DNA of 64,000 nt, from positions 12,155 through 76,154 of the forward strand of contig CAZYLF010000001.1 of the NCBI GenBank assembly GCA_964648765.1. The letters are read 5' to 3'. Every line of letters begins with the position of its first letter. Positions within the stretch are counted from its first letter, which is position 1. Made by a program: the position numbers and the translations under genes. Of the stretch, positions 52 to 48,526 are shown piece after piece. The notes below the pieces were generated by a model. That model was not told the DNA's origin and made no database searches. It worked only from the letters and a program-made list of their open reading frames with translations. This DNA is from an uncultured Candidatus Saccharibacteria bacterium (lineage in GTDB: Bacteria > Patescibacteriota > Minisyncoccia > Phycocordibacterales > JACOZG01).

Positions 52-2151
52 CTACGCGACAGCCAGAGCCTCCTCAATGTCGGCCGTCGAGCTCACCGGA
101 ACGATTTCCGCCCAGCTCACTCGCCGCAAACTGAGACTCGGCTCACCAAGTGAAGCAAGGCTCACAGTCTGCTCCATCTTGCCGGTCTTGCTATTCTTGA
201 CCGGTGTGGGAGTAATACCCTGGAACAGCTTGTTGCCGCTTTTCTCCATCGCAAACAGGATCAAGCGCTTAATGCAGCGCACCACCAGCAAACGCTTACG
301 CACTGCCTTGGCCTTCTCCTCAGCCTCTTCAAGTGCAGTCACCCGACTAAAGTCAGGGGTTGCCGCAACCTTAAATCCCTTGAGCTCATACTTAGAGGCC
401 GCTGCCGCGTAGCTGTCACTTGCCTCAACCTTAGTCCGCTCAGGATAAGATGGAGCAGTGCCCGTAGAAACGCGAAGCGCCTTCACTCGGGCATTGATCG
501 CCTTCTGCTCGGCCTCCAGCATGATCTCTTCCTTCATCAAATCAATAAGGCCAAGTCCCTTAGGGTTGGCCCATGAAGAAACAATCATCGGCAACACTGT
601 GAGGTCAAGCGTGAAGAGCTTAGTCTCCGAAAACCGGAGATTGTCAGCGATCACGCCCCACTTCTGACAAAGCTCAAAGGCCTTCTTTGTAAGATAGGCT
701 TCGAGAGTGTCTTGGTGGAGACTACCGTCTTTGATAATGACGTAGTTCCGGAAACGCTGTCCGTCAACCCACTTGCCGGTATCCTCATCCTGTTCCTCCA
801 CATCAACTTCCGTCTTCATGGAGAAATTGAATCGTTCCTGATTCGACTGAATCTCAGTCATCTTGATCTTGGCATTCGGCTTGGGACGCACACCTTTTTC
901 GATCACCGTGGCGGTGGTCTTTTGGTATGTGCCACGAGGGATGAATACGGTGCAATCTTCTTCAAGAAGCACCCGAAGTAAATTGACCACACAAGCGGCC
1001 TCACCAGCTCCGATAAACTTCTTGGTTGAGTAACGCTGACGGATACCCGTGTCGATAATGATTCGACGCAATTGATCCCCCACCTCGAGACGTTCTCGGT
1101 CGGTGTAAGCACTGCCCGCCATCATGCCAAGCATGTTCTGCCCAGCTTCCTGGAGAATCTTGGATGATGCAACCAGATCACCAGTTTGGAATGCCCACGA
1201 GGCAAACGCCAATGAGGCATCCAGCGCACCACCTTCAGACAAAGCCTTGGTGGTAATCGGTTCGGCATCAAACGCCTCGCCGTTCACCTTGCCACTCATG
1301 GTCAGGCTAGTTGTCCCGGTTGGGAGAACCACAAACAATGTGACCTCACCATCGTGGAGAGACCGGAGTGTTGCCACTCCATTATCCCCAACTCGATCCA
1401 CTTGCGGAGTTGCTCGGAGAACCATTCCTGGCTTCCCCTTGCCGCCCGTAAATGAAAGTTGCGCGTCAACAAAACTTGTTGCGCGACCAGTGGCCAGAAT
1501 ATCGCTAATCACCGGACCAAAAAGTCCGATGTCATTGATATGCCGATTAACACCAGTCCCACCATTTTTGCGAACGAGATCAGCCAGAAAGCTGGCATTG
1601 TAATAATTGCCGTAACCCAAAGTGGACAAGCTTGCGTCGTGGCTCAGACCCAAAGTTTGAGCATGTTCCACAGACTGCGCGACCTCTTCAGCCTCACTCC
1701 AACGAGAGGGTACGGGGCAACCATCAGTAAACAACATCAAATGATGTTGTAGACCACCAGCATTTTCCACACTCTCAATCACCCGCTCCAGACCTTCTGA
1801 AAACACGGTGTTGCTGAGAGTGTGAACGGCCCCAATTTCTTCAACCAGCTGCTTCTTCCCCCGAGCATCGCAGACCAAAGGACCAGCCAAAAGCTTGGCT
1901 TGGTCGTGACCGCTAAAGATAATGATCGAGGCCAGGTCAGCGGGATTCAACGTGCCGATGAAGGCTTGCAGATCCCTCTTTACCTGATTCAACGCCCAGG
2001 CCATCGAGCCTGAAACGTCCCACTGAAGTAGCCAATGTACTGGCCCAGCAGTTGGTGGCCGACTTGCCCTCAGAACGACTTTTGCCACCGTGTTACCGGT
2101 GGCTTTAAGAGTACCCAACTCGCAACTCACGACCTTCAGATCGTTCCTCAA
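52..2151 (-). CDS. vWA (von Willebrand factor A) domain protein, 699 aa, GC-rich foreign-looking gene
   Basis: N-terminal MIDAS-like motif DVSGSM (DxSxS) with downstream T and D residues typical of vWA. The ORF begins with TTG preceded by GGAAGGAG. GC is about 55 % against about 42 % for the neighbouring genes. The C-terminal approximately 450 aa were not recognised. Confidence 0.6.
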   Translation of the reverse strand: MRNDLKVVSCELGTLKATGNTVAKVVLRASRPPTAGPVHWLLQWDVSGSMAWALNQVKRDLQAFIGTLNPADLASIIIFSGHDQAKLLAGPLVCDARGKKQLVEEIGAVHTLSNTVFSEGLERVIESVENAGGLQHHLMLFTDGCPVPSRWSEAEEVAQSVEHAQTLGLSHDASLSTLGYGNYYNASFLADLVRKNGGTGVNRHINDIGLFGPVISDILATGRATSFVDAQLSFTGGKGKPGMVLRATPQVDRVGDNGVATLRSLHDGEVTLFVVLPTGTTSLTMSGKVNGEAFDAEPITTKALSEGGALDASLAFASWAFQTGDLVASSKILQEAGQNMLGMMAGSAYTDRERLEVGDQLRRIIIDTGIRQRYSTKKFIGAGEAACVVNLLRVLLEEDCTVFIPRGTYQKTTATVIEKGVRPKPNAKIKMTEIQSNQERFNFSMKTEVDVEEQDEDTGKWVDGQRFRNYVIIKDGSLHQDTLEAYLTKKAFELCQKWGVIADNLRFSETKLFTLDLTVLPMIVSSWANPKGLGLIDLMKEEIMLEAEQKAINARVKALRVSTGTAPSYPERTKVEASDSYAAAASKYELKGFKVAATPDFSRVTALEEAEEKAKAVRKRLLVVRCIKRLILFAMEKSGNKLFQGITPTPVKNSKTGKMEQTVSLASLGEPSLSLRRVSWAEIVPVSSTADIEEALAVA

Positions 2152-8481: not shown

Positions 8482-10218
8482 TTATTTATAATCTAATCTT
8501 ACCTCGCTCACGCTCGGAGTGCTCACGCCATCACCAGTTAGGAAAATCTGATATTGGGCAAAACGATTACCATTTAAAATTTTTGGAATTAACGTGCCAC
8601 TTGCAAGTGTGAAGTAACTCCCTGCTCCGCTTGGTCCTTGCCAGGCGCTCCAGGTGCCAGGGCTCCCACCAGAATCTGGCGCCACCCGAATTTGAAATTC
8701 AGCTCTACATAGTGGGGAACAAACAGGAATAGTTTGAGTCCACTCAATTAACTCAATTGGCGAAACGCCAACCATATCAAAAATTGATGAAATTAAACTT
8801 CCGGAAGTTAAGTAACCGCCACCACTTAGACGGATAATCCGTCCGTTTGCCCCCACAGCAAAACCAGTGCTTCCATTTAATGAAATACCAAATAAATTAT
8901 TGGTCGCAGGGAGTGGTGAGTAAATAGCCCACGTGCTGCCGTTCCAGCGGTAAATATCTCCACCATTTCCAACCACAAAACCGGAAGACGGTGAGGAAAA
9001 GTGAACTTCATTCCACGTATGATTACCAGTGTCTACAAACTCGCTCCACACCGTACCATTCCAACGCAATATTTTCCCAGATGCACCGACCGCCCAAGCA
9101 TCAGTAGCCGAGGTAAATGCCACGCCATTTAGTGCATTGTTTACTGGTGAAGTGATGCTGGTCCACGTGCTACCATTATAGCGATAAATATCTCCACCAT
9201 TACCAACAACAAAACCAAGCGCGGGTGAAGCAAAGTCGACATCATTCCAAGCTTGATTTCCGGTGTCCACAAACTGAATCCAATTGTTACCATTCACCCA
9301 ACGTAAAATTTTTCCCGTGGCTCCCACAGCCCAAGCCTCACTGACCGAAACCATTTTCACCGAGTTTAAATTATTTGTTACTGGTGAGGTCATTACTGCC
9401 CAAGTGGATCCACCAGTAAAACGTCTAATTACCCCTCCATTACCGACCACAAAACCTGAGGTCCCTGAAAACATGCTGACGCCATTCCAGACGTCATTAC
9501 CAGTATCTTGAAAACTTGCCCAATTACTCCCATTAAGCCGGATTATGAATCCTGCATTACCCACCGCAAAACCAGAAGTGGGAGAAACAATTGAGACATC
9601 ATTTAAAGTTTGGGTTGTCGGCGAGGTGGTAGTCGCCCACACAAGTGGCGCGCCTTTAAGTCTCAACTCGCCGGGGTTTGCTACCGCTTCAATATTTCCG
9701 TTGTCACTCAGATAACGATTAGCGACTGACCAATTGGTTTGCCCCGAGCCTCCAGACCAATCAGTTTGGCTCCAACGCTTTGAATCCCAATTTGTAAGAC
9801 GCGAACGGCGGACCGCCTCGCTTGTTTGCCCCGGGCGTGGCGACCAAGACACTCGCACATCCACATCGCGAGTCCGGAGATCAACGGGAGTAAAATTAAT
9901 TGTCCTCGTAAGGCGACCACCGATCACCTCATTTGCTCCCTCACTCGTAAATGCCCAGACCCCAGTAGAACTTGAAACTGCCGTTTGACTGAAAGTTAAC
10001 TCATTCCAACCGCGATTTTTGATTGCCTTAACAGCCCCAAAGCCCTCATTGGCCAACATATCTGCTTCCAAATTATCTTGAGATTGCAAAGCCCCGCCCC
10101 CTCCACCAAGAGTAAGTGAGGCTAAACTTGAAGCGACGATTGCAAAAATTGCCAAAGCCAAAACAGCTTCAAGAATACTGGCTCCCGTTTTACTACTCTT
10201 TGAGACTTTTATAATCAT
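8482..10218 (-). CDS. pilin-like N-terminus fused to a multi-blade beta-propeller (Ycf48/BNR-like repeats); putative pilus tip adhesin
   Basis: The N-terminus KTGASILEAVLALAIFAIVASS is pilin-like (G, then E at +5, then hydrophobic helix). The body contains at least five tandem repeats of about 45 aa. Each follows the pattern GF-VGN-G-I-R-NGS-W...SP-NN-LN-V...AWAVGA-GKILRW, which resembles Ycf48/BNR-type propeller blades. GC is about 50 %. Confidence 0.6.
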   Translation of the reverse strand: MIIKVSKSSKTGASILEAVLALAIFAIVASSLASLTLGGGGGALQSQDNLEADMLANEGFGAVKAIKNRGWNELTFSQTAVSSSTGVWAFTSEGANEVIGGRLTRTINFTPVDLRTRDVDVRVSWSPRPGQTSEAVRRSRLTNWDSKRWSQTDWSGGSGQTNWSVANRYLSDNGNIEAVANPGELRLKGAPLVWATTTSPTTQTLNDVSIVSPTSGFAVGNAGFIIRLNGSNWASFQDTGNDVWNGVSMFSGTSGFVVGNGGVIRRFTGGSTWAVMTSPVTNNLNSVKMVSVSEAWAVGATGKILRWVNGNNWIQFVDTGNQAWNDVDFASPALGFVVGNGGDIYRYNGSTWTSITSPVNNALNGVAFTSATDAWAVGASGKILRWNGTVWSEFVDTGNHTWNEVHFSSPSSGFVVGNGGDIYRWNGSTWAIYSPLPATNNLFGISLNGSTGFAVGANGRIIRLSGGGYLTSGSLISSIFDMVGVSPIELIEWTQTIPVCSPLCRAEFQIRVAPDSGGSPGTWSAWQGPSGAGSYFTLASGTLIPKILNGNRFAQYQIFLTGDGVSTPSVSEVRLDYK

Positions 10219-41352: not shown

Positions 41353-41420
41353 GCGGAGATTGTAGCATAAGTGCTACACTGGTTAAGGATAGAACTTTGT
41401 TTAAACGAAAGGAGGTAATC

Positions 41421-42293
41421 ATGGTAAAGTCTGACGAATTCGGGCCAATCCCAGGATATGATTGGCAAAAGGTAACTGTGGTTGCCTTTGTGCACGTTGT
41501 GGCATTTTTCGGAATACTTTGTTGGTGTTTAGGTGTTGAAAGTGTGACTGGCACCTGGCGGAGCGGCGTACTTGCGGTGGTGTGGTTTGTTCTCACCTCC
41601 ACCGCCATCACGGCGGGTTATCATCGCTACTTCTCTCATCGCTCACATAAAGCGAGGGGGGTTTTGGAATGGTATTACCTGCTATTTGGCGCAGGAGCCT
41701 TTCAAGGTTCAGCTATTAGTTGGCCGGCACTCCACCGTGCCCACCACACATATGTGGATAAAGGTGGTGATCCGTACAACGCCAAACGAGGATTCCTTTG
41801 GGCGCATTTGGGTTGGGTACTACGAAAAACTTACCCAGATGAAAAAATGGTTAAGGATTTACTCAAGAACCCACGCGTGGCCTGGCAAAACAAGTGGGAT
41901 CTGCCACTTGAAGTAACAATGACGTTTATTGTGCCGATGATTATTGGCGGCCTCTTGTTTGGCGAATGGTTAGGGAGCTTGATGACCGCTGGATTTATCA
42001 AACTTTTAATCCAGTGGCACATGACCTTCAGCGTAAACTCGATCGCTCACTTTTTTGGCGATCAAGAATACAACACCGAGAACACCTCGCGTTCAAGTTT
42101 TATTGTTTCTCTCCTCACTTGGGGCGAGGGCAATAGTCACAATCGACACCACGATCTGCCGCACGATTACCGTACCGGTATTGAGTGGTGGGCCTTTGAT
42201 CCGGCGAAGTGGTTTATTTGGACTTGTTCAAAAATTGGACTAGCTTCTAATTTGCGAATTTCGCGTGTGTTACCAAACAAAAAAGCCGCGTAA
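41421..42293 (+). CDS. acyl-CoA (delta-9) fatty acid desaturase
   Basis: Three histidine boxes HRYFSH, HRAHH, HNRHH; four TM helices; strong SD AAGGAGG before the ATG at 41421 (the tracked ORF is 5'-extended). Confidence 0.8.
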   Translation: MVKSDEFGPIPGYDWQKVTVVAFVHVVAFFGILCWCLGVESVTGTWRSGVLAVVWFVLTSTAITAGYHRYFSHRSHKARGVLEWYYLLFGAGAFQGSAISWPALHRAHHTYVDKGGDPYNAKRGFLWAHLGWVLRKTYPDEKMVKDLLKNPRVAWQNKWDLPLEVTMTFIVPMIIGGLLFGEWLGSLMTAGFIKLLIQWHMTFSVNSIAHFFGDQEYNTENTSRSSFIVSLLTWGEGNSHNRHHDLPHDYRTGIEWWAFDPAKWFIWTCSKIGLASNLRISRVLPNKKAA

Positions 42294-42340
42294 AAACAAA
42301 ACAGGGGCGAATGCACAAGTGCATCCGCCCCCTTTTTTTT
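42294..42340. terminator. bidirectional rho-independent terminator between the desaturase and the island gene
   Basis: Hairpin ggggcgaatgcacaagtgcatccgcccc with CTTTTTTTT on plus and TGTTTTGTTTTT on minus. Confidence 0.6.
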
Positions 42341-42986
42341 ACTCGCCTCTCTGGTGGGCTTTCCCCACGTCCAGTCCCGAACGAAGCTTCCTCTTTTTCT
42401 TTGTGGCCTCCTGCACCAACGATCGCGGATCTGCGCAGTGCACCCACGTGCCACCATCCCGAGACTGCGCGTCAGGCTTGTAGCGTTCCCACTTCAGGCC
42501 ACCCATCTCGGAGAGCAGCATTGAGCCGTCACTCGTCTCCAGAGCGGTGAGGTGGATGTCGTAGCCAGCCTTCTCAGCGAGCTGCCATAACGTCACTCCC
42601 TCAACAGGTGTGAGGGGTGAGAAGTCCAACCCCTCATCCAGCCCTTCCATCACGAGCGACACCCGAAAGGTGCCGAAGGCGCGCTTGGCATACTCACCAA
42701 CAAATGCCCAGCGCTCCGCACGGAGCTTGCCGTCACCCGAAGGTTCCCCCTCAATGAAGACGACGGTCTTCCCGACCATGTCTTCGTTCACATCCGCTGC
42801 CCCATGGGCAGAAATGTGAATTTTGGGCAGGGCGTACTTCCGATCTGGCATTACCCGACCGTAGGTCTTCTTGTGAAGACCGAAAATGAGCTGCGTCTCA
42901 GCCTCGTAGGCAAAGACAAGTCCACGGTCCGCCAAAACCTTGGTGATTGTTGCCACACGCACTCGGCCGTTCTTCTTGCCCAACAT
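42339..42986 (-). CDS. hypothetical protein family A, copy 1 (215 aa; beta-rich N-terminal region, Lys/Arg-rich C-terminal tail), GC-rich island
   Basis: Start at internal ATG with GGGAGA SD. It shares VxV.T..T..A.GL and GKT.V(V/F)I segments with the 201-aa neighbour. GC is about 60 %. Confidence 0.55.
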   Translation of the reverse strand: MLGKKNGRVRVATITKVLADRGLVFAYEAETQLIFGLHKKTYGRVMPDRKYALPKIHISAHGAADVNEDMVGKTVVFIEGEPSGDGKLRAERWAFVGEYAKRAFGTFRVSLVMEGLDEGLDFSPLTPVEGVTLWQLAEKAGYDIHLTALETSDGSMLLSEMGGLKWERYKPDAQSRDGGTWVHCADPRSLVQEATKKKRKLRSGLDVGKAHQRGE

Positions 42987-43057
42987 AATAGTTCTCCCAT
43001 ATCTCAATGTTCACTTTAGGGGGGGCGACAATCGCCTACTCCATTTGTTTGTTTCCG

Positions 43058-43093
43058 ACTTACATCCTACACTATTTTAAACTAAAAGTCAAG
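43058..43093 (-). promoter_or_regulatory. repeated promoter module, copy 1 (TTGACT, 17 nt, TAGGAT)
   Basis: 36-nt sequence acttacatcctacactattttaaactaaaagtcaag is identical to 43848-43883. Reverse complement is cTTGACTtttagtttaaaatagtgTAGGATgtaagt. Confidence 0.5.
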
Positions 43094-43100
43094 TACTAAT

Positions 43101-43145
43101 TAAACAAAAAAATGGGTCGGTCAATGTTTTCACATCAACCGGCCC
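43101..43145 (-). terminator. hairpin terminator after the 201-aa gene (ggYcggt...aaccggcc family)
   Basis: Imperfect 13-bp stem ggtcggtcaatgt/acatcaaccggcc, followed on the minus strand by a T-run. Confidence 0.5.
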
Positions 43146-43184
43146 GGCATTTGGCCCCCGCCATTTGCCTACCCCCTTTGAGAA

Positions 43185-43790
43185 CTACTTAGCCGCACCC
43201 ACCGCCGCCCGCTCACGTTGAAGCCTACGCAACTTCTTCGTCTTCGCCGGTCGGAGGTAGAAAGGACGAGCATTCTTCCTATTTCCGTCGGGTGGAACCA
43301 TGATCACCTGTCGACCCGAACGCGACAGCTCCTTCCAATCAAGCTCAATTGCTCGCTCCAAGCTTGGCGGTTTCAGACAATCTTCTTCATCACGAACCTT
43401 CTTGAGCATGGCTTGTTCCGCTTCAATGCGCTTCAGATTCTTCTCAACCTGAAACATCTCGCGATCACACTCCATCACAAACTCAAGCTGATCGGTTCGC
43501 GCTGACTCGAACTGTCCCAAGTGACACCAGCCAGTGGCGCTTGGGTTCTTCTTTGCCGCGTCTTCGGCCGAAACCGAGGCGATAACGACAATGGTCTTTC
43601 CGGCCACGGGCGGGACAATCTCGTCCCCATGAACTTCCTGAAATGAGAGGTTGCCCTTTCCCCAATCGAAACTGACGTCACGACAACCCAGCTGCCCGAA
43701 CCAGTACTCGACACCATTCGCATCAACGGCTTTGCCCCAAAAGAGGCCATTTGCAGCTGTCACTACCGTTCTGACTGTCACATTGAACAT
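43185..43790 (-). CDS. hypothetical protein family A, copy 2 (201 aa; basic C-terminal tail), GC-rich island
   Basis: ATG with GGAGAAAG SD. N-terminal VTVRTVVTAANGLFWGKA and AGKTIVVIASV segments parallel the 215-aa protein. C-terminus RPAKTKKLRRLQRER. Confidence 0.55.
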   Translation of the reverse strand: MFNVTVRTVVTAANGLFWGKAVDANGVEYWFGQLGCRDVSFDWGKGNLSFQEVHGDEIVPPVAGKTIVVIASVSAEDAAKKNPSATGWCHLGQFESARTDQLEFVMECDREMFQVEKNLKRIEAEQAMLKKVRDEEDCLKPPSLERAIELDWKELSRSGRQVIMVPPDGNRKNARPFYLRPAKTKKLRRLQRERAAVGAAK

Positions 43791-43847
43791 CGCTTTCTCC
43801 GTAAAGATCTGCCCATTATCTCCACCACACGGCGAAGATTTATATCA

Positions 43848-43883
43848 ACTTACATCCTACACTATTTTAAACTAAAAGTCAAG
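43848..43883 (-). promoter_or_regulatory. repeated promoter module, copy 2 (identical 36-mer)
   Basis: Exact duplicate of 43058-43093, placed about 60 nt upstream of the 201-aa gene start. Confidence 0.5.
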
Positions 43884-43892
43884 GGGTAATGA

Positions 43893-43934
43893 GGTAAAGA
43901 AATAGGCCAGTTAGTGTCTTCACACTAACTGGCC
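43893..43934 (-). terminator. hairpin terminator after the 175-aa gene
   Basis: Perfect 13-bp stem ggccagttagtgt/acactaactggcc with cttc loop. The trailing T-run is modest. Confidence 0.45.
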
Positions 43935-43957
43935 CGTCCGCACTCTGCGGGGCTATA

Positions 43958-44485
43958 CTAGCCAACCAATTCGGCAAACTGACTGAGCAGCTCCTGACTC
44001 TGCGCCTGGAGCTTCTGCTCCCCTTCTTCCTGCGCCGCTTCGAGATTTTCAACGAGCTCCCAGTACAACTTGGACGCCTCGTCCAGATCGAACGTTTCGC
44101 CAGAGACGTACTGTTCCAGTTCCCACGCCATCTGGCGAATGTCGTTGATGTCGTCCTCACTTACATTTTGGAGATCATCAATCGCAACTTTCAAGTTCGG
44201 AATCGTCGATGACCTCAGGAATTTCACCTGCTTGTTTCTGAAATGCTGCGTCACTTCGACGAGCACATCAACCGCGCGCTGCGGCGCAGTCCCCCACAGC
44301 GTGACGACATCCTTAATCTTCTGTTTGATGTCTGCCGTAAGTATGAAATGCCGAAATCGCGAGCGGCCATCACCCACCTCTTCACCTTTGAGATCCCTCC
44401 CCGTGGCCTTCTCAATCTCCACCTTGAGTGTATTGAGAAGCCCAGTGAAAAGTGCAACGGTTGGTACAGTGTTTGGTCCTGCCAT
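43958..44485 (-). CDS. hypothetical protein family B, copy 1 (175 aa; helical, acidic C-terminus), GC-rich island
   Basis: Start at internal ATG (MAGPNTVP) with AGGAGA SD; the tracked 5' extension would run through its own promoter. Homologous to the 193-aa neighbour (TLWGTAPQRAVDVLVEVTQHFRNKQVKFLRS vs AQWGEGKSEEAVETLRNAESHFKRQQVAYLRA; C-termini QELLSQFAELVG vs QSLVEQFADIM). Confidence 0.55.
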   Translation of the reverse strand: MAGPNTVPTVALFTGLLNTLKVEIEKATGRDLKGEEVGDGRSRFRHFILTADIKQKIKDVVTLWGTAPQRAVDVLVEVTQHFRNKQVKFLRSSTIPNLKVAIDDLQNVSEDDINDIRQMAWELEQYVSGETFDLDEASKLYWELVENLEAAQEEGEQKLQAQSQELLSQFAELVG

Positions 44486-44544
44486 GTGATTCTCCTTCCA
44501 AATCAAGTTGCTTTTGCAGTGCCGAAGTGACACTACCTGCAGTC

Positions 44545-44576
44545 CATTATACACGAATCAAGATATTTGTCAAGCC
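44545..44576 (-). promoter_or_regulatory. repeated near-consensus promoter, copy 1 (TTGACA, 16 nt, TATAAT)
   Basis: Reverse complement gcTTGACAaatatcttgattcgtgTATAATgg. Matches 45301-45332 with one mismatch. Confidence 0.55.
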
Positions 44577-44600
44577 CCCCCCTTCACACGGGTCGCTTTT

Positions 44601-44645
44601 GGGACAAATGAAAAGGCCGGTTGATGTTTTTAATACCAACCGGCC
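44601..44645 (-). terminator. hairpin terminator after the 193-aa gene (ggccggtt...aaccggcc)
   Basis: 9-bp perfect stem ggccggttg/caaccggcc, extendable to about 12 bp with one mismatch, plus flanking T-rich run on the minus strand. Confidence 0.5.
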
Positions 44646-44659
44646 CGGCTATTGCCTAG

Positions 44660-45241
44660 TTACATGATATCAGCAAACTGCTCGACCAGGGACTGGCCCT
44701 GGTTTGCGAGCGCCGCCTGCTTTTGGGCCTCGCTCTGCTGCTCGCGCTGCTTGGCCGCCTGCGCTTGCGCCTTCTTGCGATCGGCGTTCCGCTTCTCCTG
44801 AGCGGTGACGGCAGCTTCGCAAGTGTCGACAATCACCCAGTAGTCCTTCGACGCCTTGGTGACATCCACATTCTTGCTTTCAACCGCGCACGTGTCCAAC
44901 GCTTGGAGCAACAATCGGGCCGGATCGAGAAGATCATTCTCGACACCCTTGGTCGAAAGCTCCGCGATGAGCGATGCTAGCTTCTCCGTCGCGTGGGCCC
45001 GCAGGTACGCAACCTGTTGGCGCTTGAAGTGACTCTCCGCATTTCGGAGTGTTTCAACCGCCTCCTCGGACTTCCCTTCGCCCCACTGCGCGGCCGCCGT
45101 CCGGATCTTCTCCCGGATCTTGAACGAGAGTTCAAATCCAACAAAGCACGGGCGGCCACCATTGGCGCCAACTGCGGCGATGATGACAGCTTTGAAAGCC
45201 GCCATCATTTCACAAAACTGCTTGTAGGTAACGCTGACCAT
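44660..45241 (-). CDS. hypothetical protein family B, copy 2 (193 aa; helical, Gln/Ala/Lys-rich acidic C-terminal region), GC-rich island
   Basis: ATG with GGAGA SD; paralogue of the 175-aa gene; about 65-70 % GC. Confidence 0.55.
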   Translation of the reverse strand: MVSVTYKQFCEMMAAFKAVIIAAVGANGGRPCFVGFELSFKIREKIRTAAAQWGEGKSEEAVETLRNAESHFKRQQVAYLRAHATEKLASLIAELSTKGVENDLLDPARLLLQALDTCAVESKNVDVTKASKDYWVIVDTCEAAVTAQEKRNADRKKAQAQAAKQREQQSEAQKQAALANQGQSLVEQFADIM

Positions 45242-45300
45242 AATTCGTCTCCTCTATCTCAACGAACGTTCTGAGGTGCCGCATTGACACCATCTACCTA

Positions 45301-45332
45301 CCATTATACACGAATCAGGATATTTGTCAAGC
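45301..45332 (-). promoter_or_regulatory. repeated near-consensus promoter, copy 2 (TTGACA, 16 nt, TATAAT)
   Basis: ccattatacacgaatcaggatatttgtcaagc lies immediately 3' of the polA stop, upstream of the 193-aa gene. Confidence 0.55.
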
Positions 45333-45335
45333 GCT

Positions 45336-47663
45336 TTAGGCTAATTCGGCCCAGTTGAGCCCTTTTTTGGCGGTGACGGTGAACGGGATTGGGTCGGTGA
45401 TGATAGATTCCATGGCGGGCTTTATTATCTCAATCGCTTTTGGGAGATCCTCCGTTTTAACTTCATACATCAGCTCATCGTGGATTTGGAGGAGGAGAAA
45501 GGCGCTGTTTTTTAGTGGAGATTCAGCGATCGCATTGTCGGCCTTAATCATCGCGAGCTTCACAATGTCGGCGGCCGTACCTTGCAGTGGCGCATTCATC
45601 GCCATACGCTCAGCCGAAGCGCGGATAAATGGCACTTTAGATTTAAGCCCAGGGAATTGTCTGCGACGCCCAAAAAATGTTTCTGTATATCCTTTGGCTG
45701 TGGCATCGGCGATCACGTTATCAAAATAATTTTTAATTTTTGGGAAGGTGGCAAAATAATTTTCATAAAAGAGCGCCGCCTCCTCGCGCGTGCTCCCAAG
45801 ATTGGCGCGTAAAGCATTTACGCCCATGCCGTAGATAATCCCGAAATTAATTACTTTGGCTTTTCTCCTCATCTCTTTTGTCACCTCGCCTTCCGCCACG
45901 CGGAAAACGCGCGCAGCAACGCTCGTGTGCACGTCGGCGCCGGTTTTAAAAATTTCGGTTAAAACTTCATCGCCCGAGAGTAGCGCGAGCACGCGCATTT
46001 CAATTTGTGAGTAATCAAAAGCTAAAAGTTCAAACCCGGGCCCCGCCCCGCTAGCAGCGGGGGTCGCCACAAACGTCCGCCGAATTTCTTTCGCCAATCC
46101 CTCGCCAGCTGGAATGTTTTGGAGATTTGGATCGATTGAAGAAAATCTCCCCGTGGCCGCGCCCATTGGGTTCAGTGTGGTGTGCAATCGCCCATCTGCC
46201 GCCACAAGTTTAGGAATTGCGTCAATGTAAGTGGAGAGCAATTTTTGTAATTCGCGCTGTTTGAGAATTGCCGGGATAATGGCGTGTGTGTCTTTTAACT
46301 TTAAAAGTTCTGACTCTCGCGTGCTGCGCGCACCACCAGCCGTCTTCTTTAACCCTTTGGCTGTTAACTTTAATCCATCAAACAAAACTTCACCAAGCTG
46401 CTTAGGAGAATTTATATTAAACTCTCGTCCGGCTAATTTATAAATTTCACCTTCAAGTTTAGTAAGTTCCACATGTGAATCTTTTGAAAGTTTCTCCATC
46501 TGCTTCACATCAATCAGCATCCCCCGCTCGTTCTGGCGCTTAAGAATTGGGATTAGGGGTAACTCAATTTTTTCATAAACCTCCCAAAGTTTGCCGGTTT
46601 TTTTCAGTTCCGCCTCCAACTCACTTAAACTTTTCTCCGGTTCTGGATTTGTGTCCTCGGAATTTAATAACCAAGCGGCAAGTATTGCTTTGGGTTCTAT
46701 TATTTTTTTCTCGATCTGCTCGACCTCCTTTTCTTCTGATTTACCGTTTAGATTCTGAAGTCGGGCGAAGAGACTTTTGAATCCATATTCGGTAAAAACT
46801 TTTTCGGCAACCTTAACGTCAAAGGTTTCTTTCCAAACTTTTTCAGGGAATTTAAACTCAATCGGTGCATCGCGACGAATCGTGGCGAGGGTTTTAGAAA
46901 ACAGCGCCTCTTCTTCACCAGCTTTTAAAAGTTCCAAGGTTCGGGCCTTCACTCCCGCTTTTAAGAATTCTTCATCACTCTTTTTTAACTTTTTATAAAT
47001 ACTTTCAAGTGAGCCGAAGGTTCCGATTAAAGTTGTGGCACTCTTTTCGCCAATCCCGCGGATGCCAATAATGTTGTCGGAATTGTCTCCCGCCAAACCT
47101 TTATAATCCGGCAAAAGTTTGGGTTCAAAACCAAATCTGGCCACCATCGCCTTTTCGTCATACAAAATTGTGTCGTTCAAACCTTTTTTTAAAGTGTAAA
47201 CGAGCACGCGATCATCATCCACGAGTTGCATGGTGTCCATATCGCCGGAGGCAATAATTACTCGCAGATCTTTATGATCCTTTAATTCTTCTACCGCCGT
47301 GCCGATAATATCGTCCGCCTCAAAGCCGGCTTTGTCGTAAATTGGAATATTAAATCCTTCAAATATTTTTCGGGAAGAAATAATTTGCGCCACCAACGCT
47401 TCATCAGTTTTTGGTCGACCAGCTTTGTAATTATCATAAATTTCTTTCCTAAACGTTGCTTCAGCGCGATCGTAGCAAGCGATAATATAATCCGGTTTTA
47501 GTTCCGTAATAATCCGCATCAACATACTCGACAAGCCATAAAGCCCGCCCGTTGGCTCCCCCGACGCCGACACAAAGTCCGGTATCGCATGATACGCCCG
47601 ATGCAATATCGCATGCACATCAAGCAAAACTACCGTGTGTTTAAAATTCAATTTCTCTTTCAT
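45336..47663 (-). CDS. polA: DNA polymerase I (5'-3' exonuclease + polymerase domains)
   Basis: 5'-nuclease N-terminus (LLDVHAILHRAYHA), polymerase motifs A (DYSQIEMR), B (RRKAKVINFGIIYG) and C (HDELMYE). The start is taken at MKEKLNF about 51 codons inside the tracked ORF (approximate). No obvious 3'-5' exonuclease motifs were checked. Confidence 0.85.
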   Translation of the reverse strand: MKEKLNFKHTVVLLDVHAILHRAYHAIPDFVSASGEPTGGLYGLSSMLMRIITELKPDYIIACYDRAEATFRKEIYDNYKAGRPKTDEALVAQIISSRKIFEGFNIPIYDKAGFEADDIIGTAVEELKDHKDLRVIIASGDMDTMQLVDDDRVLVYTLKKGLNDTILYDEKAMVARFGFEPKLLPDYKGLAGDNSDNIIGIRGIGEKSATTLIGTFGSLESIYKKLKKSDEEFLKAGVKARTLELLKAGEEEALFSKTLATIRRDAPIEFKFPEKVWKETFDVKVAEKVFTEYGFKSLFARLQNLNGKSEEKEVEQIEKKIIEPKAILAAWLLNSEDTNPEPEKSLSELEAELKKTGKLWEVYEKIELPLIPILKRQNERGMLIDVKQMEKLSKDSHVELTKLEGEIYKLAGREFNINSPKQLGEVLFDGLKLTAKGLKKTAGGARSTRESELLKLKDTHAIIPAILKQRELQKLLSTYIDAIPKLVAADGRLHTTLNPMGAATGRFSSIDPNLQNIPAGEGLAKEIRRTFVATPAASGAGPGFELLAFDYSQIEMRVLALLSGDEVLTEIFKTGADVHTSVAARVFRVAEGEVTKEMRRKAKVINFGIIYGMGVNALRANLGSTREEAALFYENYFATFPKIKNYFDNVIADATAKGYTETFFGRRRQFPGLKSKVPFIRASAERMAMNAPLQGTAADIVKLAMIKADNAIAESPLKNSAFLLLQIHDELMYEVKTEDLPKAIEIIKPAMESIITDPIPFTVTAKKGLNWAELA

Positions 47664-47691
47664 TTGCCTGCATTTTAGCATAATAACCCTT

Positions 47692-47734
47692 TGCAAAATA
47701 AAAAAGCCCCATCCACCAATCGGTGAACGGGGCC
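47692..47734 (-). terminator. rho-independent terminator after the 219-aa gene, upstream of polA
   Basis: Hairpin gccccatccacc/ggtgaacggggc, followed on the minus strand by TTTTTTTATTTT. Confidence 0.6.
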
Positions 47735-47757
47735 CAAGGTCTAAGGATCCAAAAGAT

Positions 47758-48417
47758 TTAGGATTCCAAGACCTGCGGACTAACCGGAGGGACAAGAACG
47801 GCAAAGCCATCGTCAATACCCCATTGATAGTCAGGGCTGTCTTCGCCTACAATAAAACCACCACCAGCGCCACGACTGGAAACTCCGATGAAATGCGGAC
47901 GTGAGAACCGAGCGATTTTGATGGGCTCGTGCAGACCAAAGATAGACTTAAGCCCCATCGCCCCGATCTCATCATTAGGGAAAATCCGGCGAACCCAGCA
48001 GATAATTTCAGCACTCTGATCCTTACCGTAGATAAGGTTATGCCAGTCACAATATCTGCGAATGTTCCGAAGGGTTCGTCCTTCGTCCTCCCAGAGCCTA
48101 CCTGGCAAAATTACCACTTCGTACGTTGTGCCTCTCGGTGTGACCATAACTGGTGACTCATGCAACATACTTGCCGCCACGTTATCCACATTGTATCCAT
48201 TCTCGTGGAACCAATTTGGCCACCCCCAATTAGGTGTCCCTGTCGAGAAGAAAGAGAAACGAATCCATCCGTTCTTGTCTATTCTCCAACGACGCTTTTT
48301 TTCAGAGACAGCAAGTTCACCACTGAGTAACCGCTTCGCCCCTTCAGGCCCGCCGAGTTTATTAAACACGGCTTCAACACTAACGCCACCAACAGAAAGT
48401 TCATACTTAGGAGGCAT
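47758..48417 (-). CDS. hypothetical protein, 219 aa, GC-rich unit
   Basis: ATG preceded by GGAGAAAGG. Trp/Gly-rich (NWGWPNWFHENGY). Third copy of the TTGACT-type promoter upstream. Confidence 0.5.
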   Translation of the reverse strand: MPPKYELSVGGVSVEAVFNKLGGPEGAKRLLSGELAVSEKKRRWRIDKNGWIRFSFFSTGTPNWGWPNWFHENGYNVDNVAASMLHESPVMVTPRGTTYEVVILPGRLWEDEGRTLRNIRRYCDWHNLIYGKDQSAEIICWVRRIFPNDEIGAMGLKSIFGLHEPIKIARFSRPHFIGVSSRGAGGGFIVGEDSPDYQWGIDDGFAVLVPPVSPQVLES

Positions 48418-48526
48418 CACAACACCCTTTCTCCGACTATTAGTCAGACTTCCCTCAACCTATTAGATCAAGGGGCTTGTCCTCGCGGGTAGGCAACACA
48501 CCTCCCCAAATCAAAGAACTGCAAAG

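Follow-up and report, generated by a model that had tools for sequence, protein, structure and literature searches.

Small genes that carry their own promoter and terminator and deviate in GC content from their surroundings are known from bacteriophages as "morons," for instance gene 15 of phage HK97 (PMC3594210). Four small genes, designated here A1, A2, B1, and B2, on the minus strand of a 64-kb stretch of a contig deposited for an uncultured Candidatus Saccharibacteria bacterium (CAZYLF010000001.1, positions 12,155 to 76,154; this whole stretch is called the window) are similar to morons. They are predicted to be independent transcription units, are located between conserved genes, represent "more DNA" in comparison to syntenic relatives, and all four differ in GC content from the neighboring genes. 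Different from morons, they are flanked by housekeeping genes on a chromosome and form four tandem units that share regulatory modules. A phage moron is also a sporadic accessory gene of phages, whereas the B genes have been kept across lineages of the Candidate Phyla Radiation (CPR). The island works like an array of morons but is not one because the phage context is absent.

Other described systems share single features with this locus. Flexible genomic islets at chromosomal hot spots have a slot that is empty or filled with unrelated cargo in relatives, as found here, but the borders of the present block contain no tRNA gene, integrase, transposase, or flanking direct repeat. Integron arrays are composed of small tandem genes on the same strand with related hairpin repeats between them; the hairpins of this locus, however, are short terminators instead of attC sites, the genes have their own promoters, and no integrase gene is present in or adjoining the array. 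Type II toxin-antitoxin systems are co-transcribed and co-occurring pairs, while the genes described here form separate predicted units and B was found without A in eight lineages.

The locus is probably a tandem array of four autonomous, moron-like cassettes in a variable slot between polA and a PD-(D/E)XK nuclease gene of a Paceibacteria-type Patescibacteria genome. Each cassette would be composed of a promoter, a hairpin leader, a Shine-Dalgarno (SD) sequence, a small open reading frame (ORF), and an intrinsic terminator. The coding parts would be old and comprise two anciently split members of one protein family, family B, plus two ORFans. The two promoter types and the one terminator type would have been copied or homogenized recently between neighboring cassettes by local duplication or gene conversion.

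The four ORFs are located between a gene for a desaturase-like membrane protein (41421 to 42293, plus strand) and polA (45336 to 47810, minus strand). A first-pass annotation of the DNA had described four self-contained minus-strand genes, each with an SD sequence, a sigma70-like promoter, and a hairpin terminator, and this arrangement was found again when the sequence was read and scanned. Downstream of polA, the promoter module of B2 (45301 to 45332, minus strand as all following elements of the array) begins 5 nt past the polA stop codon and contains TTGACA-16-TATAAT, which agrees with the consensus at 12 of 12 positions. It is followed by a leader (45242 to 45300) with a 5'-proximal hairpin, GGUGUC-loop-GGCACC, and the SD sequence GAGGAG, by the B2 gene for 193 amino acids (aa; 44660 to 45241), and by an intrinsic terminator (44606 to 44659) homologous to those of B1 and A2. 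The B1 cassette has the same order, with a promoter module at 44544 to 44575, a leader (44486 to 44543) with the 5'-proximal hairpin GUAGUGUC-loop-GGCACUGC and the SD sequence GGAGA, the gene for a 175-aa, deeply diverged paralog of B2 (43958 to 44485), and 3' hairpins plus an intrinsic terminator (43895 to 43957; −32 kcal/mol, z-score of −6.8).

The promoter module of A2 (43848 to 43883) contains TTGACT-17-TAGGAT within a 36-nt exact repeat and precedes the gene for 201 aa (43185 to 43790), an ORFan product whose N-terminal half is predicted to be rich in beta strands and whose tail is rich in Lys and Arg; the 3' hairpins and the intrinsic terminator (43105 to 43184) were identified by folding. 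The A1 cassette is composed of the other copy of this promoter module (43058 to 43093), the gene for 215 aa (42339 to 42986), also an ORFan product with a Lys/Arg-rich tail, and a terminator hairpin of 13 bp (42295 to 42338) between the convergent A1 and desaturase-like genes. The 215-, 175-, and 193-aa products (A1, B1, and B2) were recovered by separate gene calls on short-read assemblies. These assemblies end at the 36-nt A-promoter repeats, contig L001 about 100 nt after B1 and contig L101 starting 101 nt before A1, and A2 is present only in the long NCBI contig. Breaks of short-read assemblies at these positions fit a true repeat, and the copy number and position of A2 rest on one assembly.

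The scans for promoters and the comparison of codon usage covered the window, which is part of a genome with a size of 553 kb or more. On both strands of these 64 kb, the only perfect sigma70 consensus promoters with 12 of 12 matches were the two B promoters. The exact repeat of 36 nt (43058 to 43093 and 43848 to 43883), which carries the A promoter, was identical at 36 of 36 positions as the first-pass annotation had indicated, and no such match occurred in 100 shuffles. The 32-nt repeat carrying the B promoter (44544 to 44575 and 45301 to 45332) was identical at 31 of 32 positions, again with no such match in 100 shuffles; the single mismatch indicated before was present, but the coordinates of the first copy had been wrong by one base (44545 to 44576). 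Both repeats extend with 81% identity, one of them over 89 nt covering the upstream terminator and the other over 64 nt into the 5' leader. A hairpin with a U-tract follows each of the four genes, with folding energies between −24 and −33 kcal/mol and z-scores between −2.9 and −6.8. The terminators of B2, B1, and A2 share homology with one another, and the changes among them are paired such that the stem is preserved. Consensus scans and folding thus agree with the earlier claim of autonomous expression units, with a predicted promoter and terminator for each gene. Hairpins in 5'-proximal position are of a kind known to protect bacterial mRNAs. Because a strong consensus promoter is combined with such a hairpin and a strong terminator, each unit would yield its own abundant and stable monocistronic mRNA.

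The age of these signals needs to be considered separately from that of the genes. Homology of B1 and B2 was significant (BLASTP E value of 6e-15), and none of 2,000 shuffles reached the score. Both genes are nevertheless far apart, with 33% identity of the amino acids, 48% of the nucleotides, and 39% of the third codon positions, and the last value indicates that the synonymous sites are saturated. In a neighbor-joining tree of 77 members of family B, B1 and B2 were not sisters, and each of them was 33 to 34% identical to proteins from other metagenomes compared to 30% to each other. A1 and A2 were not significantly similar, with a BLASTP E value of 0.14 and shuffle p values of about 0.05 (full length) and 0.007 (N-terminal halves), so that their resemblance is a shared pattern, not demonstrated homology. 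Of the two tandem paralog pairs postulated before, the B pair stands, but the A pair was not demonstrable. Likewise, a recent duplication could be maintained for the promoter and terminator modules as recent copies but not for the genes, since B1 and B2 are saturated and no sisters, and A1 and A2 lack significant similarity. The B promoters are identical at 31 of 32 positions including the spacer but their flanks at just 81%, and the probability that a stretch of 36 nt stays unchanged at an independent 81% rate is 0.81^36, or about 5e-4. Near-identical promoters beside flanks with 81% identity and saturated coding sequences indicate that the regulatory modules were recently copied or converted, independently of the older coding parts.

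The base composition of the four genes is as unusual as their signals. Their GC content is 0.53 to 0.59 compared to a background of about 0.42, and the GC content at third codon positions (GC3) is 0.59 to 0.73 compared to a host median of about 0.40. The earlier value of 55 to 70% GC was too high because the highest GC content of a 300-nt window in the region was 0.617. The foreign-looking composition as such was borne out: with respect to codon usage, the four genes were the most extreme outliers, and no other ORF among the 67 of the window reached their GC3 or fell as low in the likelihood under the synonymous codon usage of the host. The portion of G over A in two-fold codons was 0.71 to 0.79 in the four genes and 0.36 in host genes. 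This shift favors G and C in general, unlike the C-over-U pattern in the translation genes for IF3, L35, L20, and S21 of related CPR genomes. A translational selection bias of the host was considered as a reason for the GC3 excess but dropped, because these translation factor and ribosomal protein genes, taken from two other CPR loci (L093 and L082), were patterned differently.

Family B was defined with a HMMER profile of B1 and B2 by an exhaustive search of 1.84 billion representatives, and an alignment of 37 sequences was used for further analyses. The profile found 75 clusters at an E value of 1e-3 or below, 73 of them in addition to B1 and B2, and 30 clusters at 1e-10 or below; its own members scored with 3e-102 for B2 and 4e-85 for B1. 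Nearly all proteins had 150 to 270 aa, and the profile covered most of their length or all of it. Conserved motifs, carried by the N-terminal helical bundle, are GRxRFPGFxL, HFxxQQAxY, and (D)LxxASxxYW, with F36 being invariant and Q76 and W135 nearly so. Past the YW motif follows a tail of 33 to 98 aa that contains 76% E, K, R, Q, A, or D and just 1.8% Pro plus Gly. A hydrophobic motif is located at the C terminus, LVEQFADIM in B2, LLSQFAELVG in B1, and EEEFAELVA elsewhere. Family B is an undescribed protein family of the CPR.

The AlphaFold2 model of B2, based on the 37-sequence alignment, was all-helical with a predicted local distance difference test value (pLDDT) of 97.4 and a predicted template modeling score of 0.84. 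It contained helices from position 6 to 24, 40 to 54, 58 to 97, 102 to 121, and 127 to 189, the last one with 63 residues, so that B2 would consist of a bundle of helices, then a long charged helix, and finally the C-terminal hydrophobic motif. The protein is probably soluble; neither its sequence nor the all-helical model shows a signal peptide or a transmembrane segment. A helical protein with an acidic C terminus had been postulated for both B proteins; the model agrees with the helices, and an acidic character was found for B1 (isoelectric point [pI] of 4.7) but not for B2 (pI of 7.6), with a range of 4.6 to 9.7 in the family.

Searches with family B returned little. Foldseek with the B2 model found generic helical bundles only in the PDB (E values of 0.3 or higher) and nothing among the viral folds of BFVD. 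The family profile gave weak, chance-level matches to PDB sequences, the best with an E value of 0.005 to a designed protein. In a word-index search, B2 returned only itself and the 37-sequence alignment only five proteins. No family of Pfam, PHROGs, or PADLOC matched more than one of the 37 members; PHROGs gave two and PADLOC three single-member matches, the latter unrelated to each other. A tblastn search of 50,697 phage records with B1 was also without result.

The architecture of family B suggests a role as a spacer or tether: the bundle would bind one partner, and the C-terminal peptide would dock on another one or drive oligomerization. The bundle with its long charged helix resembles proteins with a folded domain, an ER/K-type helix, and a docking peptide, such as myosin VI with its lever-arm extension or single alpha-helix, and a helix of variable length with a terminal hydrophobic peptide resembles the logic of a linker plus C-terminal peptide in FtsZ or SSB. 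Family B has no sequence homology to these proteins, its fold scores are generic, and the helix is a predicted one.

Ten copies of B were compared, the two in the window and those in the loci of eight other CPR lineages. In all eight lineages, B was a solitary gene, predicted to be monocistronic, with no A-like neighbor, which indicates that B does not need A. All other sites were CPR-type housekeeping contexts, for example convergent with tsaD, in the gap between smpB and infC, in the order hisS-[B]-rpsU-ybeY-ftsA, or beside lexA and dinB-like genes. The GC content of the ten copies was 0.51 to 0.61 and GC3 0.58 to 0.76, compared to a GC content of 0.35 to 0.48 for the remaining parts of the loci. 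The GC excess was 0.13 to 0.23 in seven of the ten copies and 0.04 to 0.07 in L096, L097, and L098. B had the top GC3 among 21 genes in L082 and among 27 genes in L093. A strong intrinsic terminator and a leader of 60 to 90 nt were present in all ten copies, and a TTGAC −35 box preceded nine of them, with none seen in the 130 nt upstream of the copy in L082. Folding revealed a hairpin near the 5' end of the leader for both copies of the window, and one was also recognized by eye in L093 and L096. The sequence CTTGACAAA...GTGTATAAT...AGGTAGA.GGTGTCA is common to the promoter and leader of L093 and to those of the B genes of the window, with proteins that are just 30% identical. A pattern scan of metagenome DNA for the B promoter and leader found only the contig of L093 and one unrelated TetR promoter of a gut bacterium.

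The predicted own promoter, the own terminator, and the high GC content are thus properties of family B and not of the island. The B proteins of the eight other lineages are 20 to 40% identical, yet their genes are richer in GC than the hosts. The GC signature of a foreign gene decays with time when it is neutral, which is the amelioration argument. With such a deep divergence of the proteins, selection at the level of the nucleic acid or a distinct gene pool is likelier than a recent import, and the evidence points to one of these two, selection on DNA or mRNA or a separate gene pool, as the reason for the GC excess of B. The recent acquisition assumed by the first-pass annotation is therefore not supported as the cause of the high GC content, at least for B.

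Some of these loci showed additional features. In L082 (9960 to 10000 and 10640 to 10665), L088, and L092, the leader sequence AACCAGCCC is complementary to the 3' untranslated region just before the terminator, GGGCTGGTT, and constructs of leader plus trailer fold with an end-to-end helix of 9 to 12 bp. Such a pairing was not seen in the B1 construct of the window and was dropped as a general feature of B loci. In L093, 900 nt without a called gene (9100 to 10000) are located between a GIY-YIG gene and B; within this stretch, a direct repeat (about 50 nt) and 3' ends resembling those of tRNAs are present. A tmRNA gene upstream of B in L093 was rejected since ARAGORN found no tRNA or tmRNA there.

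In contrast to B, the A proteins stand alone. A1 found only itself in a word index of 5.8 billion proteins. For A1 and A2, scans of IMG/VR, tblastn searches of the 50,697 phage records, and searches of PDB sequences found nothing, and neither did a metagenome scan with A2. None of the four proteins matched a family in Pfam, NCBIfam, PHROGs, or PADLOC, with no PHROGs hit below an E value of 0.06 and a weak match of B1 to capH (E value of 0.0033) as the best one in PADLOC-DB v2, which was not significant. Roles as effectors or in defense or anti-defense, which had been considered possible, received no support from PADLOC, PHROGs, the tblastn searches of phages, or the viral fold search. The Lys/Arg-rich tails indicated before are present: both A proteins are basic, with a pI of about 9 and clusters of Lys and Arg within the last 40 residues. 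Binding of nucleic acids by these tails may be the likeliest activity of the A proteins.

The slot that contains the array is variable. The surrounding genes, tsaE, polA, the gene for the PD-(D/E)XK nuclease, ruvA, ruvB, ruvC, tyrS, and a gene for a penicillin-binding protein, are all housekeeping genes. The closest PolA proteins are at most 62% identical and come from metagenome-assembled genomes of Paceibacteria-type Patescibacteria, from the Yonath-, Nomura-, Vogel-, and Lloydbacteria groups. In the loci of 80 relatives, the order was tsaE, polA, a slot of 0 to 3.5 kb, the PD-(D/E)XK gene, and then four more conserved genes. The slot had just 30 to 80 nt in L010, L049, and L054 and up to 3.5 kb in other relatives, and the cargo varied from genome to genome: MazF-, BrnT-, and HicAB-like toxin-antitoxin genes, C39-like peptidases, a reverse transcriptase, and other proteins without assigned function. 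None of the proteins A1, A2, B1, and B2 or the desaturase-like protein occurred within 10 kb of polA in the 80 relatives. The comparison of neighborhoods proposed together with the first-pass annotation thus revealed a variable slot without conserved synteny of the four genes at polA. No integrase, transposase, tRNA gene, att-like sequence, or border repeat was found at the block from 41.35 to 45.34 kb, in agreement with the earlier statement that integrases and transposases are missing from the island. Since the cargo varies and the island proteins are absent from the 80 relatives, this block is accessory cargo in a recombination-prone slot.

Other explanations for the array need to be weighed. 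The four genes may have arrived together from a donor richer in GC and may have been duplicated in tandem afterwards, as the first-pass annotation had assumed. This would explain GC3 values and a codon usage far from those of the host, a variable slot with genes missing from the polA loci of relatives, and the failure to find relatives of A1 and A2. It is nevertheless unlikely because the synonymous sites of B1 and B2, which are not sisters, are saturated, the similarity of A1 to A2 is not significant, and the promoters are AT-rich and host-like. Moreover, B is GC-rich in eight other CPR hosts, always in CPR-type contexts, and no GC-rich donor outside the CPR is in evidence. A remnant of a prophage or mobile element, with true phage morons or other cargo left after decay, is improbable. 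No PHROGs family was found below an E value of 0.06, with just two single-member matches in 37 family B proteins, and the tblastn searches of phages with A1, A2, and B1, the IMG/VR scans with A1 and A2, and the viral fold search were all empty. The flanks contain tsaE, polA, the PD-(D/E)XK gene, and ruvABC instead of an integrase gene, att-like repeat, or tRNA gene at the borders, although the order of promoter, gene, and terminator in combination with a deviating GC content is that of a textbook moron (PMC3594210).

A pairing of the basic A with the acidic B proteins, as a toxin-antitoxin system or as a nucleic acid binder and its mimic, would be in agreement with the pI of about 9 and the Lys/Arg tails of A1 and A2, the pI of 4.7 of B1, and the adjacent positions of the A and B genes. 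B2 is near neutral with a pI of 7.6, however, and the family ranges from 4.6 to 9.7; each gene is a separate transcription unit as predicted from the sequence, and PADLOC gave no significant match for any of the four proteins. The partner pairs with basic and acidic tails suggested by the first-pass annotation also do not agree with the lack of an A-like neighbor in eight of eight other lineages, so that such a two-component system is quite improbable. An integron-like array of same-strand ORFans separated by hairpin recombination sites is the least probable of these explanations and has hardly any likelihood. It could account for four tandem genes without assigned function in the same orientation and for three homologous intervening hairpins in which paired changes keep the stem. 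The hairpins have about 32 nt with perfect stems of 12 to 14 bp and U-tracts, which makes them intrinsic terminators. Sites for attC have 57 to 141 nt with RYYYAAC/GTTRRRY cores, which were not found on reading the sequence. Integron cassettes are normally promoterless, while every cassette here has its own promoter, and a gene for a tyrosine recombinase (intI) was present neither in nor adjoining the array.

The tandem array of autonomous cassettes thus remains the preferred explanation, but several points weigh against it. The function of the promoters and terminators of the four cassettes is a prediction from sequence. The evidence that A1 and A2 are genes is indirect and comes from the length of the ORFs, the GC content at codon positions (GC1 of 0.61 to 0.63, GC2 of 0.42 to 0.43, and GC3 of 0.59 to 0.69), SD sequences of the GGAG type at the right distance, and flanking signals, with each ORF framed by a promoter and a terminator. 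The AlphaFold2 model of A1, with A2 as alignment, was unusable at a pLDDT of 29.8. The charged segment of family B, modeled as a single helix, could equally be a coiled coil, and the GC contrast of B is small in L096, 0.51 compared to 0.47.

The neighborhood of the array contains further candidates for accessory genes. The desaturase-like gene (41421 to 42293) belongs to the same inserted block and is missing from the slot of the relatives. Its product had no match in Pfam and only one in NCBIfam, DesA with an E value of 1.2e-12 and 48 bits compared to a cutoff of 400, while the histidine boxes HRYFSHRSH, HRAHHTY, and HNRHHDLPHDY are visible. To our knowledge, a desaturase is unusual in a CPR genome. 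Just upstream of the PD-(D/E)XK gene, a promoter-like site is located at 41359 to 41386 on the minus strand (TTAACC-16-TACAAT plus an upstream TG). Because the PD-(D/E)XK gene directly follows polA in relatives with an empty slot, the insertion may have split an ancestral polA operon.

The genes tsaE and polA are neighbors in most of the 80 relatives; in the window, a 220-aa ORFan (47758 to 48420, minus strand) with a GC content of 0.50 is located between them, beyond polA as seen from the array. With a promoter-like site of its own, TTGACT-17-TAGAAT (48555 to 48527), and no match in Pfam or NCBIfam, this ORF resembles a fifth accessory cassette with autonomous expression. In L018 (4297 to 5085) and L035 (7850 to 8590), the slot downstream of polA contains genes for proteins of 246 to 262 aa that are homologous as judged by eye and richer in GC than their hosts, 0.51 compared to 0.44 and 0.53 compared to 0.49, respectively; a third family of accessory cargo with a high GC content may be represented by them. 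Another outlier in composition within the window is a gene for a VWA-domain protein of 699 aa (52 to 2151, minus strand) with a GC content of 0.53 and a GC3 of 0.57. It has a promoter-like site with TTGACT, and its leader comprises about 110 nt. An assignment of this ORF to EF-G was rejected in favor of the VWA-domain protein.

The finding is genuine and of more interest at the level of the family than as a local island. A gene that is rich in GC across hosts despite a deep divergence challenges the interpretation of a deviant GC content as a sign of recent transfer. Near-identical promoters in front of saturated coding sequences suggest that, in these tiny genomes, regulatory modules can be copied or converted apart from the genes under their control. 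The CPR represents a large share of the bacterial diversity, and most of its lineage-specific proteins are uncharacterized. Family B offers a well-defined target among them, with about 75 clusters, a very confident model, and regulatory signals from which a high expression is predicted. It is conceivable, though doubtful at present, that a class of portable, self-contained cassettes exists in the CPR bacteria, of which family B would be the prototype; their coding sequences would stay at about 55 to 60% GC at any GC content of the host (35 to 48%), and they would move between intergenic sites of housekeeping genes without a recognizable recombinase. If so, the persistent GC excess would mean either selection on DNA or mRNA, such as an escape from AU-directed RNases or toxins or an extreme stability of the transcripts, or a separate gene pool with its own composition. 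The B protein would then be present in large amounts and serve these ultra-small cells as a lineage-specific structural or tethering protein.

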